DNA of 64,000 nt from a virus. The stretch covers positions 128,001-192,000 of the IMG/VR virus record IMGVR_UViG_3300045988_154312; one strand, 5' to 3'. The notes beneath the pieces were generated by a model. That model searched no databases, had not been told where the DNA came from, and saw nothing but the letters and a program-made list of their open reading frames with translations. Positions 7,023 to 34,480 of this stretch are shown here, piece after piece. The position numbers and the translations under genes are program-made. Every line of letters starts with the position of its first letter. Positions within the stretch are counted from its first letter, which is position 1.

Positions 7023-7906
7023 TCGAACATTTAAAAAATAAAGTAACGACTTTTTTACAAGTTAAAAAAATAAACGAAATCATAGATTCTCTAATTCAAT
7101 TCGACAAAACTATTTCTAGTAATGCTATTCAAGATTTAATTAATCAATATAATTCTCGTCTCGAGAATATGAAACATTATTTAAACGATAAAGTTTCTGA
7201 AAGTATTGACGATTTAAAAAATTTAGTTAATTCGACATTAGCTAATTATTATACTAAAGATGAATGTAACGATCGATTCGTTAAGCTTAGTGAGTTAAAT
7301 GATTTTATTCGATATGAAAATCCAGAAACTAGCGGTAAGTTAATTATTAATTCTGGAGATAATCCTTGTATTAATTTTACACAAGGATCGATTAGTACAT
7401 TATTTAATATCGACGAATATTCTATCGAAGCATTTCCGTTTGCTATTAAACGTGGAGATAAAACATTATTAGAATTTAATGCATATGGTTTAGTGACTAA
7501 TAAGACTATTATTACGACAAATAATTATCGTAATTATATTAAGCTTCCACAATGGCGTAGCAATCAAGAAATGAATAAAGAAAATTATGATAAATGGAAC
7601 GAAGCTTACGCTTATATATATAATGGTTGGAATTACCAGCCAGTATTTATGTTAGTTCATAATGCATTCTTGCGTGGTTATAAACCATGGAATGATCCTA
7701 ACGATGGTCCACCTTCAAATTTATCTGTATCATTTTTTAACTATTATGCTTGGGATAAAAATCATACGATTATTCAACGTTTAGAACTTAATCCATATGA
7801 TTATAAATTTTATGTAAATGAAATTTATCGTCAAAGAAGAAAACATCATAGTAGTTATAATCATTTATGGTGGAATTGCGGAGAATATACAATAAAATGG
7901 CGTTAG
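7019..7906 (+). CDS. Fibre-like structural protein (paralog family, C-terminus ...IKWR)
   Basis: ATG at 7019 overlaps the upstream TGA (ATGA). YYTKDECNDRF motif. The GTG at 7013 is an alternative start. Confidence 0.6.
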   Translation: MIEHLKNKVTTFLQVKKINEIIDSLIQFDKTISSNAIQDLINQYNSRLENMKHYLNDKVSESIDDLKNLVNSTLANYYTKDECNDRFVKLSELNDFIRYENPETSGKLIINSGDNPCINFTQGSISTLFNIDEYSIEAFPFAIKRGDKTLLEFNAYGLVTNKTIITTNNYRNYIKLPQWRSNQEMNKENYDKWNEAYAYIYNGWNYQPVFMLVHNAFLRGYKPWNDPNDGPPSNLSVSFFNYYAWDKNHTIIQRLELNPYDYKFYVNEIYRQRRKHHSSYNHLWWNCGEYTIKWR

Positions 7907-8412
7907 ATTTAAATACATTAAAAAATAACCTCAACGATTTAATCAATAGAATTAATAATTTAGAATCATCTGCTATTCATATCGATGGTTATTTAACGTC
8001 ACTCGATATTAATGAAATGGCATATTCTACTAACGAAACGATTAAAAATTTAGATGTCGATACGATTATTGTTGATGAGAATATATATATTAACGATAAC
8101 AGTATCGATAACACATCTATTAAGATTAATAAACATGATTTAGTTTTTAATGATACGTTAATATACGATAATAAAAAATTAAAATATGATAACGATATGT
8201 TGTTGCCTAAATTCGAAGAATATACTGGCGACTTAGTTAAAGGCGAATATTATATCGTTATTAAAGATACGATTAATAAACCATATCTTATTAATTATCA
8301 TAGTAAAAATTTTATTTGCAACGATTTTAAAATCGAAAATAATAAAATCATCTGCGATAAACAGTATATGATAAGGAAGCGAGGTAACGCTAATGATTCA
8401 AACATTAAATAA
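7897..8412 (+). CDS. Fibre-associated hypothetical protein
   Basis: In-frame ATG at 7897 (MALDLNTLKNNLNDLINRINNLESS) overlaps the upstream gene end by 10 nt. Confidence 0.5.
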   Translation: MALDLNTLKNNLNDLINRINNLESSAIHIDGYLTSLDINEMAYSTNETIKNLDVDTIIVDENIYINDNSIDNTSIKINKHDLVFNDTLIYDNKKLKYDNDMLLPKFEEYTGDLVKGEYYIVIKDTINKPYLINYHSKNFICNDFKIENNKIICDKQYMIRKRGNANDSNIK

Positions 8413-27649: not shown

Positions 27650-28019
27650 TTCAAGTGTCCATGAAAGGAGGTGATGCTACCATGGACACACGTAAGAGCT
27701 GGCAATCTCGGAATATACTGCCCAGGAGTTGACTTGCCTGGTGGTCTGCTATACGTAGCAGGGATGTGACAACACAAAAGATAGCTTTAGTACGTGCGGA
27801 GTGGGGAAAGCATGATCGCATGCACACAATGATGGCGTACTCAGGCCTAATAAGAGTCTTTCGACAATACAATCTTATTAGGCATCAGGGTGTGAACAGC
27901 AAGTACGATCTTTTGATCGACTCCTGAAGATGATATTAAAGCTGTTCGTTTTTGGAAGTGAAAGTTATGAAAGATGTGTAAGCGTCGTGAGTTAGGACGC
28001 TATATAAATACTAACTCAT

Positions 28020-28063
28020 TCTTTATATAAGGATCTTATATATATAAGGTCTTTATATAAGGA
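28020..28063. repeat. Three abutting AT-palindrome-containing repeats upstream of 28144 gene
   Basis: TCTTTATATAAGGA / TCTTATATATATAAGG / TCTTTATATAAGGA in tandem, about 80 nt before the start codon. Confidence 0.6.
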
Positions 28064-28143
28064 ATATACTTTTTTATTCCTTTGTTTTTTTGGCCCAATA
28101 TTTAAGGGCTTTTAGTTTAGGGCACAAGCCCGAGGAGGTAGCT

Positions 28144-28740
28144 ATGACTACTTTAAATTTAAGAAAATTTTTCTGTTTCGGTATTGAAAACGTGAAAGGT
28201 GAAACCTTCCACGGTACAAAGGAGGCAAAACTTGCCATGAATGTGGCAACCAGCATTATGGAATTTTACCATAATGCTGGTTTTGAAAAAGTCGTTGCAA
28301 CTAATTGTAACGACAACATCTTCGTGAAGGATAGCACTGGCAGACTGCTAGCCTTCGTGACAGAAGTCTGCCATCTCGAGGCGAACGGTTCGAAAGAATA
28401 TAGAACCGCTTATTGGGCATGGAATGAGGTGAAACGCCAAGCCCAAATTGTAGCCGAAAAAGCGGCGGCGAAGAAAGCTTCGGCGAAGGTCGACGCCGAA
28501 GCAAAAGAAGGTCGTGAAGTTGCGACCGAGAAAAATGCTACCATTAAGGGTAGCATCGAGGTTAGATCTCCTCAAAAAAAGACTACCTATTATGCGATTC
28601 GGAAGGGTCGCACAATAGGAATCCTCACCGATTGGGGTGAGGCATCGGAATCCGTTACCGGATATTCCGGTGCGGTATTCAAGAAGTTCAGCGTCCTAAA
28701 GGATGCTGAAGAATATATGAAAGGTGGTGATGACGAATAA
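28144..28740 (+). CDS. Protein with C-terminal RNase H1-type RNA:DNA hybrid-binding domain (no RNase H catalytic domain)
   Basis: SD GAGGAGG. C-terminus TYYAIRKGRTIGILTDWGEASESVTGYSGAVFKKFSVLKDAEEYM matches the Cauli_VI/RNase H1 N-terminal domain pattern. Ala/Lys linker upstream. Confidence 0.7.
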   Translation: MTTLNLRKFFCFGIENVKGETFHGTKEAKLAMNVATSIMEFYHNAGFEKVVATNCNDNIFVKDSTGRLLAFVTEVCHLEANGSKEYRTAYWAWNEVKRQAQIVAEKAAAKKASAKVDAEAKEGREVATEKNATIKGSIEVRSPQKKTTYYAIRKGRTIGILTDWGEASESVTGYSGAVFKKFSVLKDAEEYMKGGDDE

Positions 28741-28778
28741 TCACTCCCTGTTTCGTTGTACTGAGAGGAGGTGAATAC

Positions 28779-29069
28779 GTGAAACAGTACAACTATAAAC
28801 ATTGCCCTGTTGTCAAACTAGCATGTGGTGAAGTCCACGTGCTAAGTGGCGACAAGGGTAGAAAATTCTTGAGCTGGTTCATATACGTCCATAAAGCGGA
28901 CGTGTATGATCCGCTTAAGGAACGCGTCTGGGTGATCGAATACGGTCGCCCAGACGAAATCAAGAAAGAATGTCTCGTTGCTGCTATCCAACCGTATGGC
29001 TGGAAGAACATCGGGACATTCAAAAAGACATACTCTAAATATTTGGAGTATGTCTCCAACAAATCCTGA
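28779..29069 (+). CDS. Hypothetical protein
   Basis: GTG start after GAGAGGAGGTGA. Confidence 0.55.
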   Translation: MKQYNYKHCPVVKLACGEVHVLSGDKGRKFLSWFIYVHKADVYDPLKERVWVIEYGRPDEIKKECLVAAIQPYGWKNIGTFKKTYSKYLEYVSNKS

Positions 29070-29220
29070 GCCAGCATCAGCGCCCGACCACCGAGGCGCT
29101 AGTAATAAATATCGGAATAATATTTCTAATAAAAGCTATCTGTCAAAAATTGATTAATTAAAAACTCGGCAGTAGATAGATAGCTAATAATAAATTAATA
29201 CTGCCGAGGAGGAGTTAAAG

Positions 29221-32200
29221 ATGAAAAAAGTAAATGTTACAACAAATAACACAATAGTTAAAGCTGCAGGCATGGAGCTAGTTGCTCCAACCGTAGCAGT
29301 AGTTATTAAAGAAAATGCACGTGTATCAAAACGCGTGCGTAAATCTTTAGTTTGCAAACGTCGCGAGGAAGTAAAGAAGGCGAAAGCCTTCGCCGCTTAC
29401 GTTACGGCATTAAAGAAAGTAGCTCAAAACGAGCCAGCCGTAGTTCCTAGCGACAATCGCAAGTCGCAGAAAAAACGTGCTGGAAGAGCTCAACAACGCT
29501 GCATCGTTGCGGCAAAGGAGCTGTTGCAACAGCAACGCTCTAATGAGCTGGAGGCACGCAAGCTTCGTCGAGAAAAAGGCCTAGTATTCAAACCGATTGG
29601 TTTGATTACACGCAAAATTTCACCAATCGAAAAAGCTGCTTTATCTGTTAAACCTTCCCAACATTTATTGGAAAGCGTGAATGTATTGGACAATCGTCCA
29701 AGCATTAACGTGCGTTGCGTAGTGGCGCACAAAATGAAGAAATCCTTCATTTATACGATGAAGGTCACATCGATTAATCGGTGTGGAATCTTCAGCGACA
29801 TCGACGTTAAGGCTGGCGCCGTTGTCGAAACAGGAGTCTTCAATGCTAAAGGTAGTATTGAAGATTTCACAAAATCCTTAGTCAAAGACATCTGTCTCGA
29901 TACATTTGTCTTTGACTTTGGCGAGTTAAAAGGAAGCGACATCACGGACGCTTTTGAAGAGCTTGCCGAAATGAAAGGGTTTGCTGATCTATTACCTACA
30001 GCAGCAAGCCCTTCTCAAATTCGCGGCAATCAATTAATTCTTTGCCGTGAAGATCTAGGGTATGCCGTTATTGACCGTGTTCATTTATTGACCGGTAAAT
30101 TAACAGCTGGTAAAGGCGAGTTGTCTGTAGGTAAAGCAGCTAAGCTCTTGACACGAGCAGGACAACCTAACGTAGCTGGCAAAGAATTGAAAATCGACTT
30201 AGATAAAGAATATTTTATCGTAGTCGACTCTTTCAATAAAGGAGATAATTTCGACGGCCAAAGCTTCCACAACCACGAATGGTTCTGTGAAGGCTACGGG
30301 TTGCCGTTCTTCTTTGATACTTATCATCAATCTCGGTTGATGTATATGGCGAAAGAAGGATCTCAACCTTTGAGCCGCGAAGTAATCAATCGCTGGGGTA
30401 AGGAACTTGTTGTTAGCGATAAGGCCTATATTTGCGGCAATAACGCTGCTAAAATTGGCCGTGCCAAAGACTTCAAGAATATTTGGGTCGTTGGCAACGT
30501 TGACGGCGAATGTATTTCTATCCATGACTTGAATGGTTGGAAAGCTTCGCCTGCAGAGCAACAAGCTGCAGAACAGGAAATCTTGAAAGTTATGGCCTTC
30601 ACTCATGAAACTCCTGCAGTAATTGGGTCTCAACCTTTACAATTTACGATGATCGATAAAGCTCATCGTAGTTTAATTGCAGAGTATGCAGTTAAACAAA
30701 AAGTGGCTGAATTTGAACGCAGTATCGAAGCAGTTCTAAAAGGCGGAGATACTGGTTTAGCTATCGATGCAGGCCTTATGGTCGATTACAATAGTTCTAT
30801 TAAGAACAACGTGATCTTAGCATCTAAAATGGCTGCTATTGCCGACAAAGCTGCTAAGATCCTCGAAGGTCCTTCTTTCGAGGGTCAAAAAGAAAGTAGA
30901 TCTTTAAAAGGTGTAGTAGACCCTACATTGCTATTCCTTGACAAAGGTCTATTAAAAGAAGGTGAAGTTGTCGTTTCTGATCGTACATACAAAGCGATGA
31001 AACGAAACGATGGCTTACACCAACTAGTATGCGTGATCTTTAGAAATCCACATGCTGGCGAATTCTACCGTGCACGCATAATTTCTGTTTCTATGTTCAA
31101 GAAACGTATTCTTGGTTTACAAGTTAAATACAACTTGTTCACAGAAATAGAATTAGCAGTTGTTCTTAATGCAGTAAAAATGCTTAACGACAATTGCTTG
31201 ATCACGACAGGTACTGATTATTTCAAATCCTGTTGTGGCGGCAGCGACTATGATACAGATAGCTACGTTGTATGTGTATACGAAGACGCTGCTATCTTCT
31301 CTCATCGCATTGAACGTTCTGTTCATATTCCAAGCGAAATGGGAGCAGACAAGATCGTTGTTTGGAACAGACACGATCAATTGGTTGTCGAAGTGTGGAA
31401 AAATGCCATGAAAGCAACTAAGACAGATGTTGGTAGTTATGCAACAATCATAGCAAAATCTTCGGGCTTACTTGCAGAGCCAGCTGGCAGCGCTGAAGTT
31501 AAAAATGCATTTAAACTTATTAAGGAAGACGCATTAAGCGCTCGAAAAGTTGCTATCGACAAAGAGTTGATTAGCGGCGATGAGGAGGTTCAATATGAAG
31601 GCTTCTATGAAGAAGGCAAAAATATTGGAGAAAAGGATATTAGCAACGAAAAATTGCAAAATATCTACTTGTCTTACGTTCAAAGCCATCTTACTCCTCG
31701 TGAAACAATGAGATGGTTGTTGGATATCTTGTTAACTGGTCCAGCTGCTATGGGTATGATTATCGATATCCCTAAAACACAGCTAACAGTTAATATACCA
31801 TCTGGCGATCTTTTCGAACGCTTGAGCTTAATGCGCAAGAAGTTCCAGCCTAAGATCGCTGAAAACGATGGCAAGTTTGTGGCTGCTACATTTGACTTTA
31901 AAGTTAAAAAATATGTAGCAAGTGCAAATCCATCTACTTGCGGTGGTTTTATTACATCTCTTGGCGGTCAAGAGAGATATTATATCTCCGACGTCTTGTA
32001 TAGAGACATTATGGTACCTACAGCCAAGGCTATGGCCGAAGTTATGAACCGTGTAGCCAAAGAATTAGGTTATAAAGGTCGTAGCGAAGGCGAAAGAAAT
32101 CTTGAAAATAAGGTTGTCGAAATGGGCAATCTTATTCTCGAAGATTGCCGCAAGTCCATTTTCAGCGTCGACGCTGATGGCGTAACTGTCAATAATTTAA

Positions 32201-33690
32201 AGACAGCTTTGCCATACGTCGCTGATATGGTGGCAAGTGCTCTTGGCAAGGGCAACAAATATTCTTTAGCAAAAGAAGCAGGTTTTATCTATAGCGAAAA
32301 CTGTTTCGCTAAGGAATATCTTGATGAATTGGCTGATCAATTCGGCGAAGAAAGATTGTACGTGCCTGTAACTGTTTACGGCCGTGATAACGTTGCATTA
32401 AATATGTACCGCTACCACGACTTCGAAACAGGTCGTGAAGGAGAGTACGTATCTTTCTTCGACGGAATTAGCAGCGACAACTGCTTGTTCTTAAGCGAGA
32501 AGATTTGCGGTCAATTCGAACTTTTCCGCAAAGGAAACACAGCTTACGTCATGAAAGACGTAAGAGATTCCTTTAATGCAGTAGAATTGAAAGGACGAAT
32601 CGCGTTGAGAACTCGTACGGAAAATGCATCCGATGAGATCTTTAAACTCGTTAAGTGGAACGCTTTTGCTCCTGTGGAACAAAAGGCAGAATTCTATTTA
32701 ATGAGCAGTAGCTGTGCTCGTTCTAAAGGAGCTTTGTGGTACGGCAAGAATAAAGAAGCCATTGGTGATGGCTTGTTCATTCTTGCTTCTGGCAGCAATA
32801 AAGTTCCTAAAGGCACACCTATGCAAGTGTGCAAGTTTGATAAAGAAGGCGGTAAATACGTCTTCAATCAAACTGGCGAAGGTAAATTTGCTATTAAGGT
32901 GAACATTGATGAGTTGTGCTTCAACTATATCGATGAAAACAAAGATAGCAAAAAGAACACTATTCTCTTGTTGATGACAAAACAAGAGTCTTGTGTTGTA
33001 TTGCCAGATCCAGAAAAACCTTTAGTAGAAGAAGTTAACGAAACTCCTACTGTTGAAGTCGTAGCAAAGGCCGGAGACTCTGCTACGAAGAGCGAATGGT
33101 TAAGCATGGATAACTATAAGCGCGAAGAAGGCGCGATGGTTATCTGTGCGACTGGCCATCGTTCAGATAAATTAGGTTGCGGCAAGGGAGATGATTGGAG
33201 CTCCAAATCTCCTAAGCTACAACCTGTTCGCGATAGAATCGAAGCGAAACTTCGTTCTATCCTCGATTTTCAAGTCCTAGCGGGCGAAAAGAAATTTGAG
33301 TTGATCAGCGGTATGGCGTTAGGCGTTGACCAACTGTTCTTTAGCGTAGGGAATCAGTTACGCAAAGAATATGCTGAGCAAGGTATTACAATCGTATTAA
33401 CGGCTGCAGTGCCTTGCATTGAGCAAGACGGCATATGGAAAGACGATTGCAAAATCTCATATGCTGCTATGCTTAAGGCAGCTGACAAAAAAGTTCGTAT
33501 TTCTAATAAGAAGTACGAAGACGATAAAGGCTGCATGCAGCGCAGAAACCGTTTCATGGTAGACAATGCCGATATGGTATTGGCTTACCATGATGGAAGC
33601 GAAGGCGGTACTAAGAACTGCATCGACTACGCAAAGAGCATCGGTGCAGTAATAGAGAACGCCTTCGAGGGTCCGGAGGAAAATAAATAA
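29221..33690 (+). CDS. Giant protein with an RdRP/YonO-like two-barrel polymerase signature (DxDxD) fused to a C-terminal YpsA/DUF1273 SLOG domain
   Basis: SD [17 protein letters not shown] (aa 608-614), then [14 protein letters not shown] (D676/D678/D680). The last ~185 aa align motif by motif with B. subtilis YpsA. Basic N-terminal ~130 aa. Confidence 0.85.
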   Translation: [1489 protein letters not shown]

Positions 33691-33713
33691 CCCTCCGGGT
33701 CCCCCCTTCTACG
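33690..33713 (+). promoter_or_regulatory. Hairpin (accc-TCC-gggt) + CCTTCTACG element directly after the polymerase stop codon
   Basis: The same CCTTCTACG 9-mer follows a GC hairpin at 36709-36738, also directly after a stop codon. Confidence 0.4.
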
Positions 33714-33912
33714 TTAACCGAAGTAAGACGTGGGAGGAACGACAATTACATATGAAGATACAGGAGTATATTTATCATTCTACGATAGATGTGCTCTGGC
33801 ACTGCTGTGCCGAAATTTTATTTGAGATTTATAAGGGATTTTCCCTGCCGGGGGCCTCCTGACGGAGAGTCCCCTGCGGGGCAAGTCCTATATAAGTCGA
33901 AGTTGTGTTTCC

Positions 33913-33933
33913 GGACTCCGTCCCGAAACATTC
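33913..33933 (+). promoter_or_regulatory. Hairpin-TCC-GAAA motif copy (variant)
   Basis: ggac-TCC-gtcc followed by cGAAACATTC. Confidence 0.35.
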
Positions 33934-34003
33934 TTTGAAGCAGTTATGCATATATATGCGTAACTGTCTTTAGTGAAGATATTGGGCGTTCTGCGATAGA
34001 AAT

Positions 34004-34025
34004 GTCGCTCCGCTCCGAAATCATC
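34004..34025 (+). promoter_or_regulatory. Hairpin-TCC-GAAATC motif copy (degenerate stem)
   Basis: gtcgc-TCC-gctcc-GAAATCATC. The flanks match the consensus but the stem is weak. Confidence 0.3.
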
Positions 34026-34480
34026 TATGAGGAATTTTTATTCCTTATCGTCTTGGACCACGGAGACGTTAAATACACGCTGAGTGGTCGTCTTTGGGGG
34101 AAGCCGGACGTTAAAGGAGCTTCCCGATTTTTATAATATTATATGTGGACGGTCCATATTGAGTTATGGCGTGAGTTCGTGGTCACAGCCGTTCACATAT
34201 AATATTATCTTTCAGCTGAGCGGTAGACCCGCCGATATCGTCCTAACTTTGTCCTTAGTGGCAGTCATAGGAAGTAGAATCGGCGGGACTACAAAATGCT
34301 TCCGGTGTGGCTTATTATACACGACCGGGGGGACCGTCAGGAGTATATTTGTTACTTCTGGCGGTATATAAATTATCTATTAATGGTTAGTGGCGACCGT
34401 CCACTTTAAAATACCGGCAGGAGAAAAAGATAAAGTTGATTTAAGTTTTAAAATCATACGATAAGTATGATATCTGTAAT

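Follow-up and report, generated by a model that had tools for sequence, protein, structure and literature searches.

The stretch of DNA under study, hereafter the window, comprises 64,000 nucleotides (positions 128,001 to 192,000) of the IMG/VR virus record IMGVR_UViG_3300045988_154312, a ~230-kb jumbo phage from a human oral metagenome; this window and about 10 kb on either side of it are the part of the genome that was read. At 29221-33690 on the + strand, the window carries an uninterrupted open reading frame (ORF) with an ATG start that is preceded by a strong Shine-Dalgarno sequence (GAGGAGGAG), and we confirm that this is a real gene encoding a single-chain polymerase-SLOG protein of 1489 amino acids (aa). 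The parts of this gene, three of which (N, M and C) are separate adjacent genes in most relatives, are as follows:

29221-29610 (+): N-terminal extension, residues 1-130, Lys/Arg-rich, delimited by its K+R content and by the start of the split relatives
29611-30678 (+): N module, residues 131-486, proposed beta-like barrel; a gene of its own in split relatives
30679-31920 (+): M module, residues 487-900, catalytic beta-prime-like barrel (Pfam RdRP, Foldseek RDR2); a gene of its own in split relatives
31246-31260 (+): predicted DxDxD metal-binding triad D676-Y-D678-T-D680 within the M module, kept in 56/56 sequences
31921-32985 (+): C module, residues 901-1255; the third separate gene in split relatives
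32986-33135 (+): acidic Pro/Glu-rich linker, residues ~1256-1305, poorly conserved (71%)
33136-33690 (+): YpsA/YoqJ-type SLOG domain, residues ~1306-1489 (Pfam, YpsA structure sequence, YoqJ)

An original prediction, made from the letters of the window alone, had described this 1489-aa ORF as a fusion of a polymerase signature to a SLOG domain. All of the motifs that it quoted are present, with D676/D678/D680 at nt 31246-31260 and R608 where it had been placed, except that the FRNPHAGE block around R608 occupies residues 607-614, its F lying one residue before the position 608 that had been given. The DxDxD block spans residues 671-687, with 68 residues from R608 to D676, and the YpsA-like blocks lie at residues 1310-1319, 1360-1371, 1395-1408 and 1441-1467. 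The Lys/Arg richness that had been noticed in the first ~130 residues was measured as 24.6% K+R in residues 1-130 versus 11.5-16% in the later 130-residue blocks. Conservation of this extension is low among close homologues (72%), and the split relatives begin near residue ~130-155 of the fused protein, the split N genes of the L007 type having an N-terminal extension of ~77 residues of their own.

The same full-length architecture was found in all close homologues (30 database clusters with 67-100% identity, on contigs of 220-234 kb), and the fused form is also intact in four IMG/VR contigs. On the basis that the intact ORF recurs in 30 clusters from independent assemblies and in these four contigs, we conclude that the fusion is not an assembly artefact. 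The public names of the close homologues ('DUF1273' and 'YoqJ') cover the SLOG part alone.

Assignment of the polymerase and SLOG parts

The Pfam family RdRP (RNA-dependent RNA polymerase, PF05183) matched residues 558-706 when the full protein was used as query (27.2 bits, E-value 2.1e-6), above the curated gathering cut-off of 23.8 bits, as the original prediction had proposed to check, and it was the sole Pfam family to match the polymerase part. The M module alone reached 31 bits (E 1.5e-7), and a precomputed Pfam RdRP match was present in 26 of the 30 close homologues. No match to a T7/N4-type polymerase was obtained in Pfam, PHROG, NCBIfam or the PDB, consistent with the absence of T7/N4-type motifs that had been remarked from the letters, and identity as a T7/N4-type single-subunit RNA polymerase (RNAP) was rejected since no T7-type family or structure matched. 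Defence families and further domains were likewise without a match. When the whole protein was compared with the PDB by sequence, the sole solved structure to be matched was that of Bacillus subtilis YpsA (2nx2).

We then compared two AlphaFold models with the PDB by Foldseek. Model 1 (residues 131-1300, mean predicted local distance difference test score (pLDDT) 55.5) returned plant RDR2 on top (7eu0_M, E 7e-4; 7rqs, E 1.7e-3), and model 2 (residues 131-900, mean pLDDT 63.8, predicted template-modelling score (pTM) 0.57) returned RDR2 as its top three matches (7w88, E 4.4e-7; 7eu1_M, E 1.8e-6; 7eu0_M, E 2.6e-5), with probability 1.0 over 660-720 aligned columns and the next PDB match only at E 0.46. 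The catalytic segment (residues ~560-690) has a pLDDT of 70-92 in model 2, and values of 70-90 were obtained over most of residues 160-310 in the models. We regard the RDR2 result as strong evidence of a family relationship, not of barrel geometry. Among predicted viral structures (BFVD), an N-module homologue from a 'Myoviridae sp.' metagenome-assembled genome (MAG) was matched at E 2.5e-18 and an unnamed phage protein of 1218 aa at E 1e-7; further matches were two proteins from phage MAGs that carry the name 'RNA dependent RNA polymerase' and, weakly, baculovirus LEF-9. The structure matches thus include a cellular RdRP (RDR2) at significant scores, and gp66 of crAss-like phages did not appear among them.

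Two-barrel polymerases are defined by eight invariant residues, which in QDE-1 are D709, R738, K743, R962, P964, D1007, D1009 and D1011 (Ruprich-Robert and Thuriaux, PMC2919709). Candidates for all eight are invariant in 54-56 distinct sequences of 20-34% identity, an alignment that includes a distant 1145-aa single-chain relative: R608, P610, D676, D678 and D680 are kept in 56/56 sequences and D345, R372 and K378 in 54/54, with D345-G346 and Q370 likewise invariant. The spacings D345-R372-K378 are 27 and 6 residues, versus 29 and 5 in QDE-1; these three candidate residues of the second barrel go beyond what had been noticed originally. As the catalytic candidates are invariant despite an overall identity of 25-30%, they argue for a working active site. 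The further invariant positions are S263, R268 (in SxSQIR), K305, K308, D326, G425-N426, D436, N438 and K441 in the N module and E614, G664, K669, G673-G674, D689, D835, G845, I848-D849 and K852 in the M module, where I848-D849...K852 form an 'IDxPKT' motif. The C module, for which no family match was found, has 14 near-invariant residues, including D975, Y999, G1021, G1074, F1079, G1082 and S1084.

The order of these motifs is collinear with that in YonO, read directly from phage SPbeta:

SxxQIR motif: S263...R268 in the window protein, SSAGQIR in YonO
K-rich loop: K305 and K308 in the window protein, not assigned in YonO
xDxDK motif: IDLDKE in the window protein, IDIDK in YonO
DG motif: D345-G346 in the window protein, TDG in YonO
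R...K motif: R372 x5 K378 in the window protein, VRLPWVKG in YonO
RxPH motif: R608-N-P-H in the window protein, RSPH (LRSPH) in YonO
DxDxD motif: D676-Y-D-T-D680 in the window protein, DNDGD in YonO
IDxxKT motif: IDIPKT (848-853) in the window protein, IDFAKT in YonO

An hhalign comparison of the polymerase family profile with a 30-sequence YonO profile gave a weak alignment of 638 collinear columns (P 0.005, probability 7%). The N module alone reached a probability of 19%, with SxxQIR, the K-rich loop and IDxDK aligned, and the M module alone gave no match to YonO. SPbeta YonO is a phage single-chain two-barrel enzyme that lacks the sandwich-barrel-hybrid-motif (SBHM, 'flap') insert of cellular RNAPs, as the window protein appears to be from its motifs and models, and SPbeta also encodes a YpsA-type SLOG protein (YoqJ), but from a separate gene ~25 kb from yonO. 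YonO differs in its length (839 aa), its Cys-rich C-terminal tail, and in having neither an adjacent gene for a hybrid-binding domain nor a SLOG fusion. The eukaryote-type RdRPs (RDR2, RDR6 and QDE-1) share DG, Q-x-R...K, RNPxxxxE, GG-x-DxDxD and IDxPKT in the same order and, judging from the models, the single chain with two barrels. By contrast, the window protein is phage-encoded, only ~10-12% identical to them in structural alignment, has a gap of 68 residues between RxP and DxDxD (~45 in QDE-1) and a DYDTD triad in place of D(L/Y)DGD, and comes with a SLOG fusion, a hybrid-binding partner gene and a three-gene split in most relatives.

Taken together, the Pfam RdRP match above cut-off, the RDR2 matches and the invariant catalytic residues bear out the RdRP/YonO-like signature that had been called from the letters. 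They support placement of the enzyme on the RdRP/YonO-like branch of the two-barrel superfamily, measurably closer to eukaryote-type RdRPs than to YonO. Of the wider kinship that had been proposed, the part concerning eukaryote-type RdRPs is therefore measurable, whereas the link to YonO is weak by profile and gp66 is not among the structure matches. As far as our searches show, the polymerase represents a distinct, very divergent and previously unannotated family within a known superfamily.

In the C-terminal domain, Pfam YpsA (PF06908, cut-off 27.7 bits) matched residues 1309-1468 with 54.1 bits (E 2.4e-14), the YpsA structure 2nx2 matched over 162 residues (E 7.5e-8) and SPbeta YoqJ is 33% identical (E 1e-24), all in agreement with the earlier assignment of the last ~185 residues to the YpsA type. 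G1368-V-D1370 aligns to LGVE of YpsA, corresponding to the GxD/E substrate-binding signature (G53/E55 in YpsA) as defined for the YpsA clade (PMC6459960), and both this signature and the first-loop T1311-G-H-R (residues 1311-1314) are invariant in 16 homologues. The SLOG domain is the best conserved part among the fused homologues, and since 90-93% conservation is kept even in a distant subclade whose N and M modules are down to 64% and 55%, it is under purifying selection. Viral SLOG domains are mostly YpsA-like and usually standalone, occur in 31% of jumbo phages and have been predicted to act as sensors or degraders of immune signals derived from ADP-ribose; fusions have been reported to helix-turn-helix (HTH) and HNH domains and to 3'-5' exonuclease, superfamily 1 (SF1) helicase and guanylate kinase domains, and those to nucleic-acid enzymes were interpreted as sensor-regulated (Iyer et al. 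2022, PMC9503650). The domain described here is like these viral SLOGs in belonging to the YpsA/YoqJ clade with GxD, in its jumbo phage origin and in its fusion to a nucleic-acid enzyme, but that enzyme is an RNA polymerase, which is absent from the published fusion list (PMC9503650), and most viral SLOGs stand alone. In keeping with the earlier remark on such fusions, the literature searched describes no polymerase-SLOG fusion, and in these searches the present one is the first.

Split relatives, partner gene and cassette exchange

A scan of IMG/VR yielded 78 related viral loci, in 74 of which the polymerase is encoded by three adjacent genes N, M and C and in four of which it is fused; L001 is a further contig of the split type. 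Its N, M and C genes are parted by TAA stops that are followed by a fresh ribosome-binding site (RBS) and ATG start, and the split is therefore genuine. Even at an E-value of 10, the 10 kb on either side of the split cassettes yielded no SLOG, and the fused chain, the basic N-terminal extension and the SLOG domain are limited to the lineage of the window. An exhaustive phmmer search of 1.84 billion representative proteins returned only ten matches, the distant ones being complete proteins of 350-465 aa that each correspond to one third of the polymerase, plus the 1145-aa single chain, which lacks a SLOG domain. Searches of GenBank phages with the whole protein by megablast and tblastn matched the SLOG part alone, and two further word-indexed searches with alignments added little beyond the matches of the first query. 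The split points are identical across all split clades, and the junction in the window corresponds to ...LDEVKRNLN*/MKENKNLKVAEAF... in the closest split relatives. From these sequence comparisons, the simplest history would be that the gene was split once in an ancestor and later re-fused in the lineage of the window, which also acquired the basic N-terminal extension and the SLOG domain.

Two ORFs precede the polymerase gene in the window:

28144-28740 (+): partner gene, 198 aa from ATG 28144 (the ORF extends to TTG 28090), Pfam Cauli_VI
28779-29069 (+): small ORF, 96 aa, GTG start, between partner and polymerase

The partner ends in an RNase H1-type hybrid-binding domain (Pfam PF01693, Cauli_VI; 56.9 bits, E 2.5e-15), and NCBIfam matched it to the N-terminus of an RNase H model only. 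The RBS GAGGAGG precedes ATG 28144, and the gene call in L081 likewise gives 198 aa. In an iterated hidden Markov model (HMM) search, 76 of 80 loci had a homologue of the partner directly upstream of the N module, with a gap of -4 to 67 nt, and the other four loci are truncated. Given this linkage, the partner is very probably a cofactor or subunit of the polymerase. The 96-aa ORF was found in three of the four fused-type loci only (L003, L004 and L006; phmmer E<=1e-3) and has no family match. None of the PADLOC defence models matched the polymerase-SLOG protein, the 198-aa partner or the 96-aa ORF.

The cassette formed by these genes is hypervariable. Identity between the window and split-type phages is 76-96% for several flanking proteins (for example the endolysin-like one) and only 24-34% at the aa level for the polymerase modules, and DNA similarity ends exactly at the cassette borders, at window positions ~28089 and ~33690-33838. 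In a comparison of window ~28089-33838 with 6323-12073 of L068 (and with other loci), cassettes of similar length (5.75 kb) replace each other, being non-homologous at the DNA level between flanks that are collinear and 75-92% identical in DNA; the cassette of L068 contains a 359-aa membrane-anchored protein that is missing from the window. Within the fused clade, comparison of P0027-P0030 with the window gene shows an intragenic mosaic (N 64%, M 55%, C 89% and SLOG 93% identity), which suggests recombination or accelerated change limited to the two barrel modules. At the left border, before the partner gene, lies an AT-rich, near-perfect palindrome of 48 nt (28018-28065) with three copies of TATATAAGG, followed by a T-run; this word, which CTATATAAGT after hairpin 1 of the downstream region (see below) resembles, was considered as a candidate promoter element and dropped, as it is not enriched in the window.

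Split-type cassettes were also found on two contigs from the same oral-metagenome project, L083 and L084, that had been binned into MAGs of Candidatus Saccharibacteria (126-kb contig) and of Mogibacterium diversum. Both are probably mis-binned phage contigs, not prophages, and so reflect binning rather than infection; these two bins were the only genome matches bearing on the host, and no host was assigned.

Surroundings and downstream structured region

All predicted genes of the window lie on the + strand, and the window contains no tRNA. Genes for a DnaB-type helicase, RecJ and a DnaE-type polymerase at or beyond the left end are followed by tail and endolysin-like genes at 15.7-23.7 kb, then by the cassette and by dozens of small unannotated genes. 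Directly 3' of the polymerase gene there is a further feature:

33691-34480 (+): gene-free, highly structured, conserved stretch

In this gap of 790 nt after the polymerase stop codon, positions 33820-34380 are predicted to fold on the + strand with -241 kcal/mol (z -10.8) into about ten long hairpins, versus -186 kcal/mol (z -8.1) for the minus strand. Its DNA is better kept than the adjacent genes, being 91% identical over 682 nt in L013, whose polymerase is only ~30% identical, and more than 12 loci share a 60-nt core (33838-33897) at 98% identity. Hairpin 1 (33826-33898) could form three G-U pairs on the + strand only and is too invariant for covariation. The region has no Rfam or tRNA match, and a 95-aa ORF within it (34084-34371) is probably spurious and non-coding. 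It could be a non-coding RNA, a terminator or promoter array or an origin, and it may or may not be part of the cassette functionally.

Several further observations were made on the same phage genome. The G+C content of the window is strongly uneven: it reaches ~38-43% between 10 and 14 kb and between 26 and 40 kb, and drops to 22-27% in the 44-62 kb stretch, which contains small ORFs only. In PHROG, a 181-aa ORF at 7867-8412 weakly resembles Sir2 (NAD-dependent deacetylase, E 0.005); should this be real, the ORF would add a second NAD+-related gene to the window. At 18454-19545 of L165 (~8.4-9.5 kb past the right end of the window) lies an IS605 OrfB/TnpB-type (Cas12f-like) gene, and the phage genome also has two YopX-family genes. 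No match came from three look-ups of proteins of the window whose start codons are uncertain.

What the fusion protein may do

We favour, as a probable but by no means assured explanation, a phage DNA-dependent RNA polymerase whose SLOG domain acts as a sensor or scavenger of host NAD+-derived signals. The active site would lie between the N-module barrel (D345, R372 and K378) and the M-module barrel (R608-x-P610 and the predicted Mg-binding D676-x-D678-x-D680). By analogy with SPbeta YonO, crAss-like gp66 and P23-45, the polymerase most likely transcribes phage DNA, probably acting with the hybrid-binding partner, which would hold or clear the RNA:DNA hybrid. The YonO-like enzymes are DNA-dependent RNAPs found in phages (PMC5467207), and they occur in two jumbo phages (PMC7824862). 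In the lineage of the window, three ancestral genes would have been joined into one chain and two parts added: the basic N-terminal extension, possibly serving nucleic-acid binding or targeting, and the SLOG domain. By analogy with its viral relatives, the latter most likely has as its ligand or substrate a nucleotide derived from NAD+/ADP-ribose, for example one of the cyclic ADP-ribose signals of host immunity, and would either blunt signalling where the polymerase acts or tune polymerase activity to the signal.

A number of points weigh against this explanation. Pfam RdRP was reached at E<1 by only four of 21 family-wide members, which indicates fringe membership, and polymerase family profiles run against PDB sequences matched no real chain, only His-tag/TEV linkers. 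The structure models are partly confident (mean pLDDT 55.5 and 63.8) and their template-modelling (TM) scores to RDR2 are low (0.22-0.30), and the fold assignment therefore rests on local similarity and motifs. D345, R372 and K378 are equated with the beta-like barrel residues by motif and spacing, in a segment of low pLDDT in model 2. The nearest solved relatives are RNA-dependent enzymes, so that DNA dependence is argued from phage precedents. Other polymerases or a primase may be encoded elsewhere in the 230-kb genome. Finally, the 74 split-type loci have the polymerase with no SLOG domain, and communication between SLOG and polymerase is a proposal.

That the best sequence and structure matches are cellular RdRPs and not DNA-dependent enzymes raises the alternative of an enzyme that, in the manner of QDE-1 or RDR2, is truly RNA-dependent or dual-template and would copy phage or host RNA or single-stranded DNA into duplex RNA or an RNA:DNA hybrid for RNA-based regulation or counter-defence. 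The strictly linked partner, whose domain type binds RNA:DNA hybrids and double-stranded RNA, would then bind the duplex product, and the large, very stable hairpin-rich non-coding region directly 3' would also be in keeping with such an activity. However, those phage members of the branch for which the papers found report an activity (YonO, crAss-like gp66 and P23-45) are DNA-dependent RNAPs, no RNA-silencing partners were seen in the window, and the hairpin region keeps ~91-98% identity where the polymerase has diverged to 25-30%, a contrast that speaks against a co-evolving template; we consider this alternative unlikely. We deem it equally improbable that the enzyme is a replication primase or origin-activating RNA polymerase making primers or R-loops for the DnaE-type replicase, with the partner stabilising the primer:template duplex. 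The hybrid-binding partner would suit primer handling, priming by RNAPs has been proposed for primase-less jumbo phages (PMC7824862), and DnaB-type helicase, RecJ and DnaE are present with no primase-family match in the window and the 10 kb upstream. Yet several unannotated genes of 380-460 aa in the replication block could encode a primase, about 70% of the genome lies outside the stretch searched for one, the cassette sits between the tail/lysis genes and the small-gene block, outside the replication block, and its hypervariability would be unusual for a core replication enzyme. A degenerate, non-catalytic polymerase relic with a structural role, for which the weak similarity to known families and the extreme divergence could be taken to speak, is hardly credible given that none of the catalytic-site candidates varies among 54-56 sequences that are only 25-30% identical overall.

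The favoured explanation has a sub-variant, the weight of which is not to be added to that of the alternatives, in which virions would carry the polymerase and inject it, as in N4/crAss-like phages. The protein would then be a 'polyvalent' early effector whose SLOG domain works on its own, as an enzyme or sponge against defence, and does not regulate catalysis. Both crAss-like (phi14:2 gp66) and N4-like (gp50) virion RNAPs are large phage polymerases with extra modules, and N4-type RNAPs are fused to an NAD+-using ADP-ribosyltransferase (ART) and other anti-host domains, the reported fusions including peptidase, lysozyme and RNase domains (PMC5512222). Phi14:2 gp66 is described as a two-barrel enzyme related to RNA interference (RNAi) polymerases, but it is not among the Foldseek matches of either model, and N4 gp50 is a T7-type enzyme of unrelated fold. 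The position of the gene just downstream of tail and endolysin-like genes, the resemblance of the basic N-terminal extension and flexible acidic linker to add-on modules, and the precedents among N4-like RNAP fusions and virion-associated NAD/ADP-ribose enzymes are consistent with packaging. As packaging of the split relatives would require their three gene products to enter the virion as a complex and no packaging or ejection domain was identified, we hold this sub-variant to be possible but doubtful.

The SLOG fusion, the three-gene split of the relatives and the obligatory hybrid-binding partner are undescribed as far as our searches show. In bacteria and phages, two-barrel polymerases of the RdRP/YonO branch are rarely found and little understood, few having been characterised (YonO, crAss-like gp66 and P23-45), and the family described here adds a lineage whose nearest measurable relatives are the eukaryotic RNA-silencing polymerases. 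Its natural N/M/C split, beside a re-joined chain, offers ready-made domain boundaries for biochemistry, and the obligatory RNA:DNA-hybrid-binding neighbour hints at how such enzymes handle their product.

As it diverges far more than its surroundings, the cassette is likely to be a target of host-phage conflict in an abundant group of human oral phages. In a bolder reading, which we think rather unlikely, it would be an arms-race element: near-identical oral jumbo phages would carry deeply divergent, exchangeable polymerase alleles, and one lineage would have wired its polymerase to a SLOG sensor or hydrolase of the host's immune nucleotides such that phage RNA synthesis responds to NAD+-derived defence signalling as to a switch, or is protected from it. 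If true, ligands would gate this viral RNA polymerase, which might work on RNA:DNA hybrid or RNA templates instead of being a plain transcriptase. Under the favoured explanation, the polymerase-SLOG fusion would tie transcription, or RNA synthesis generally, to immunity centred on NAD+ and ADP-ribose.

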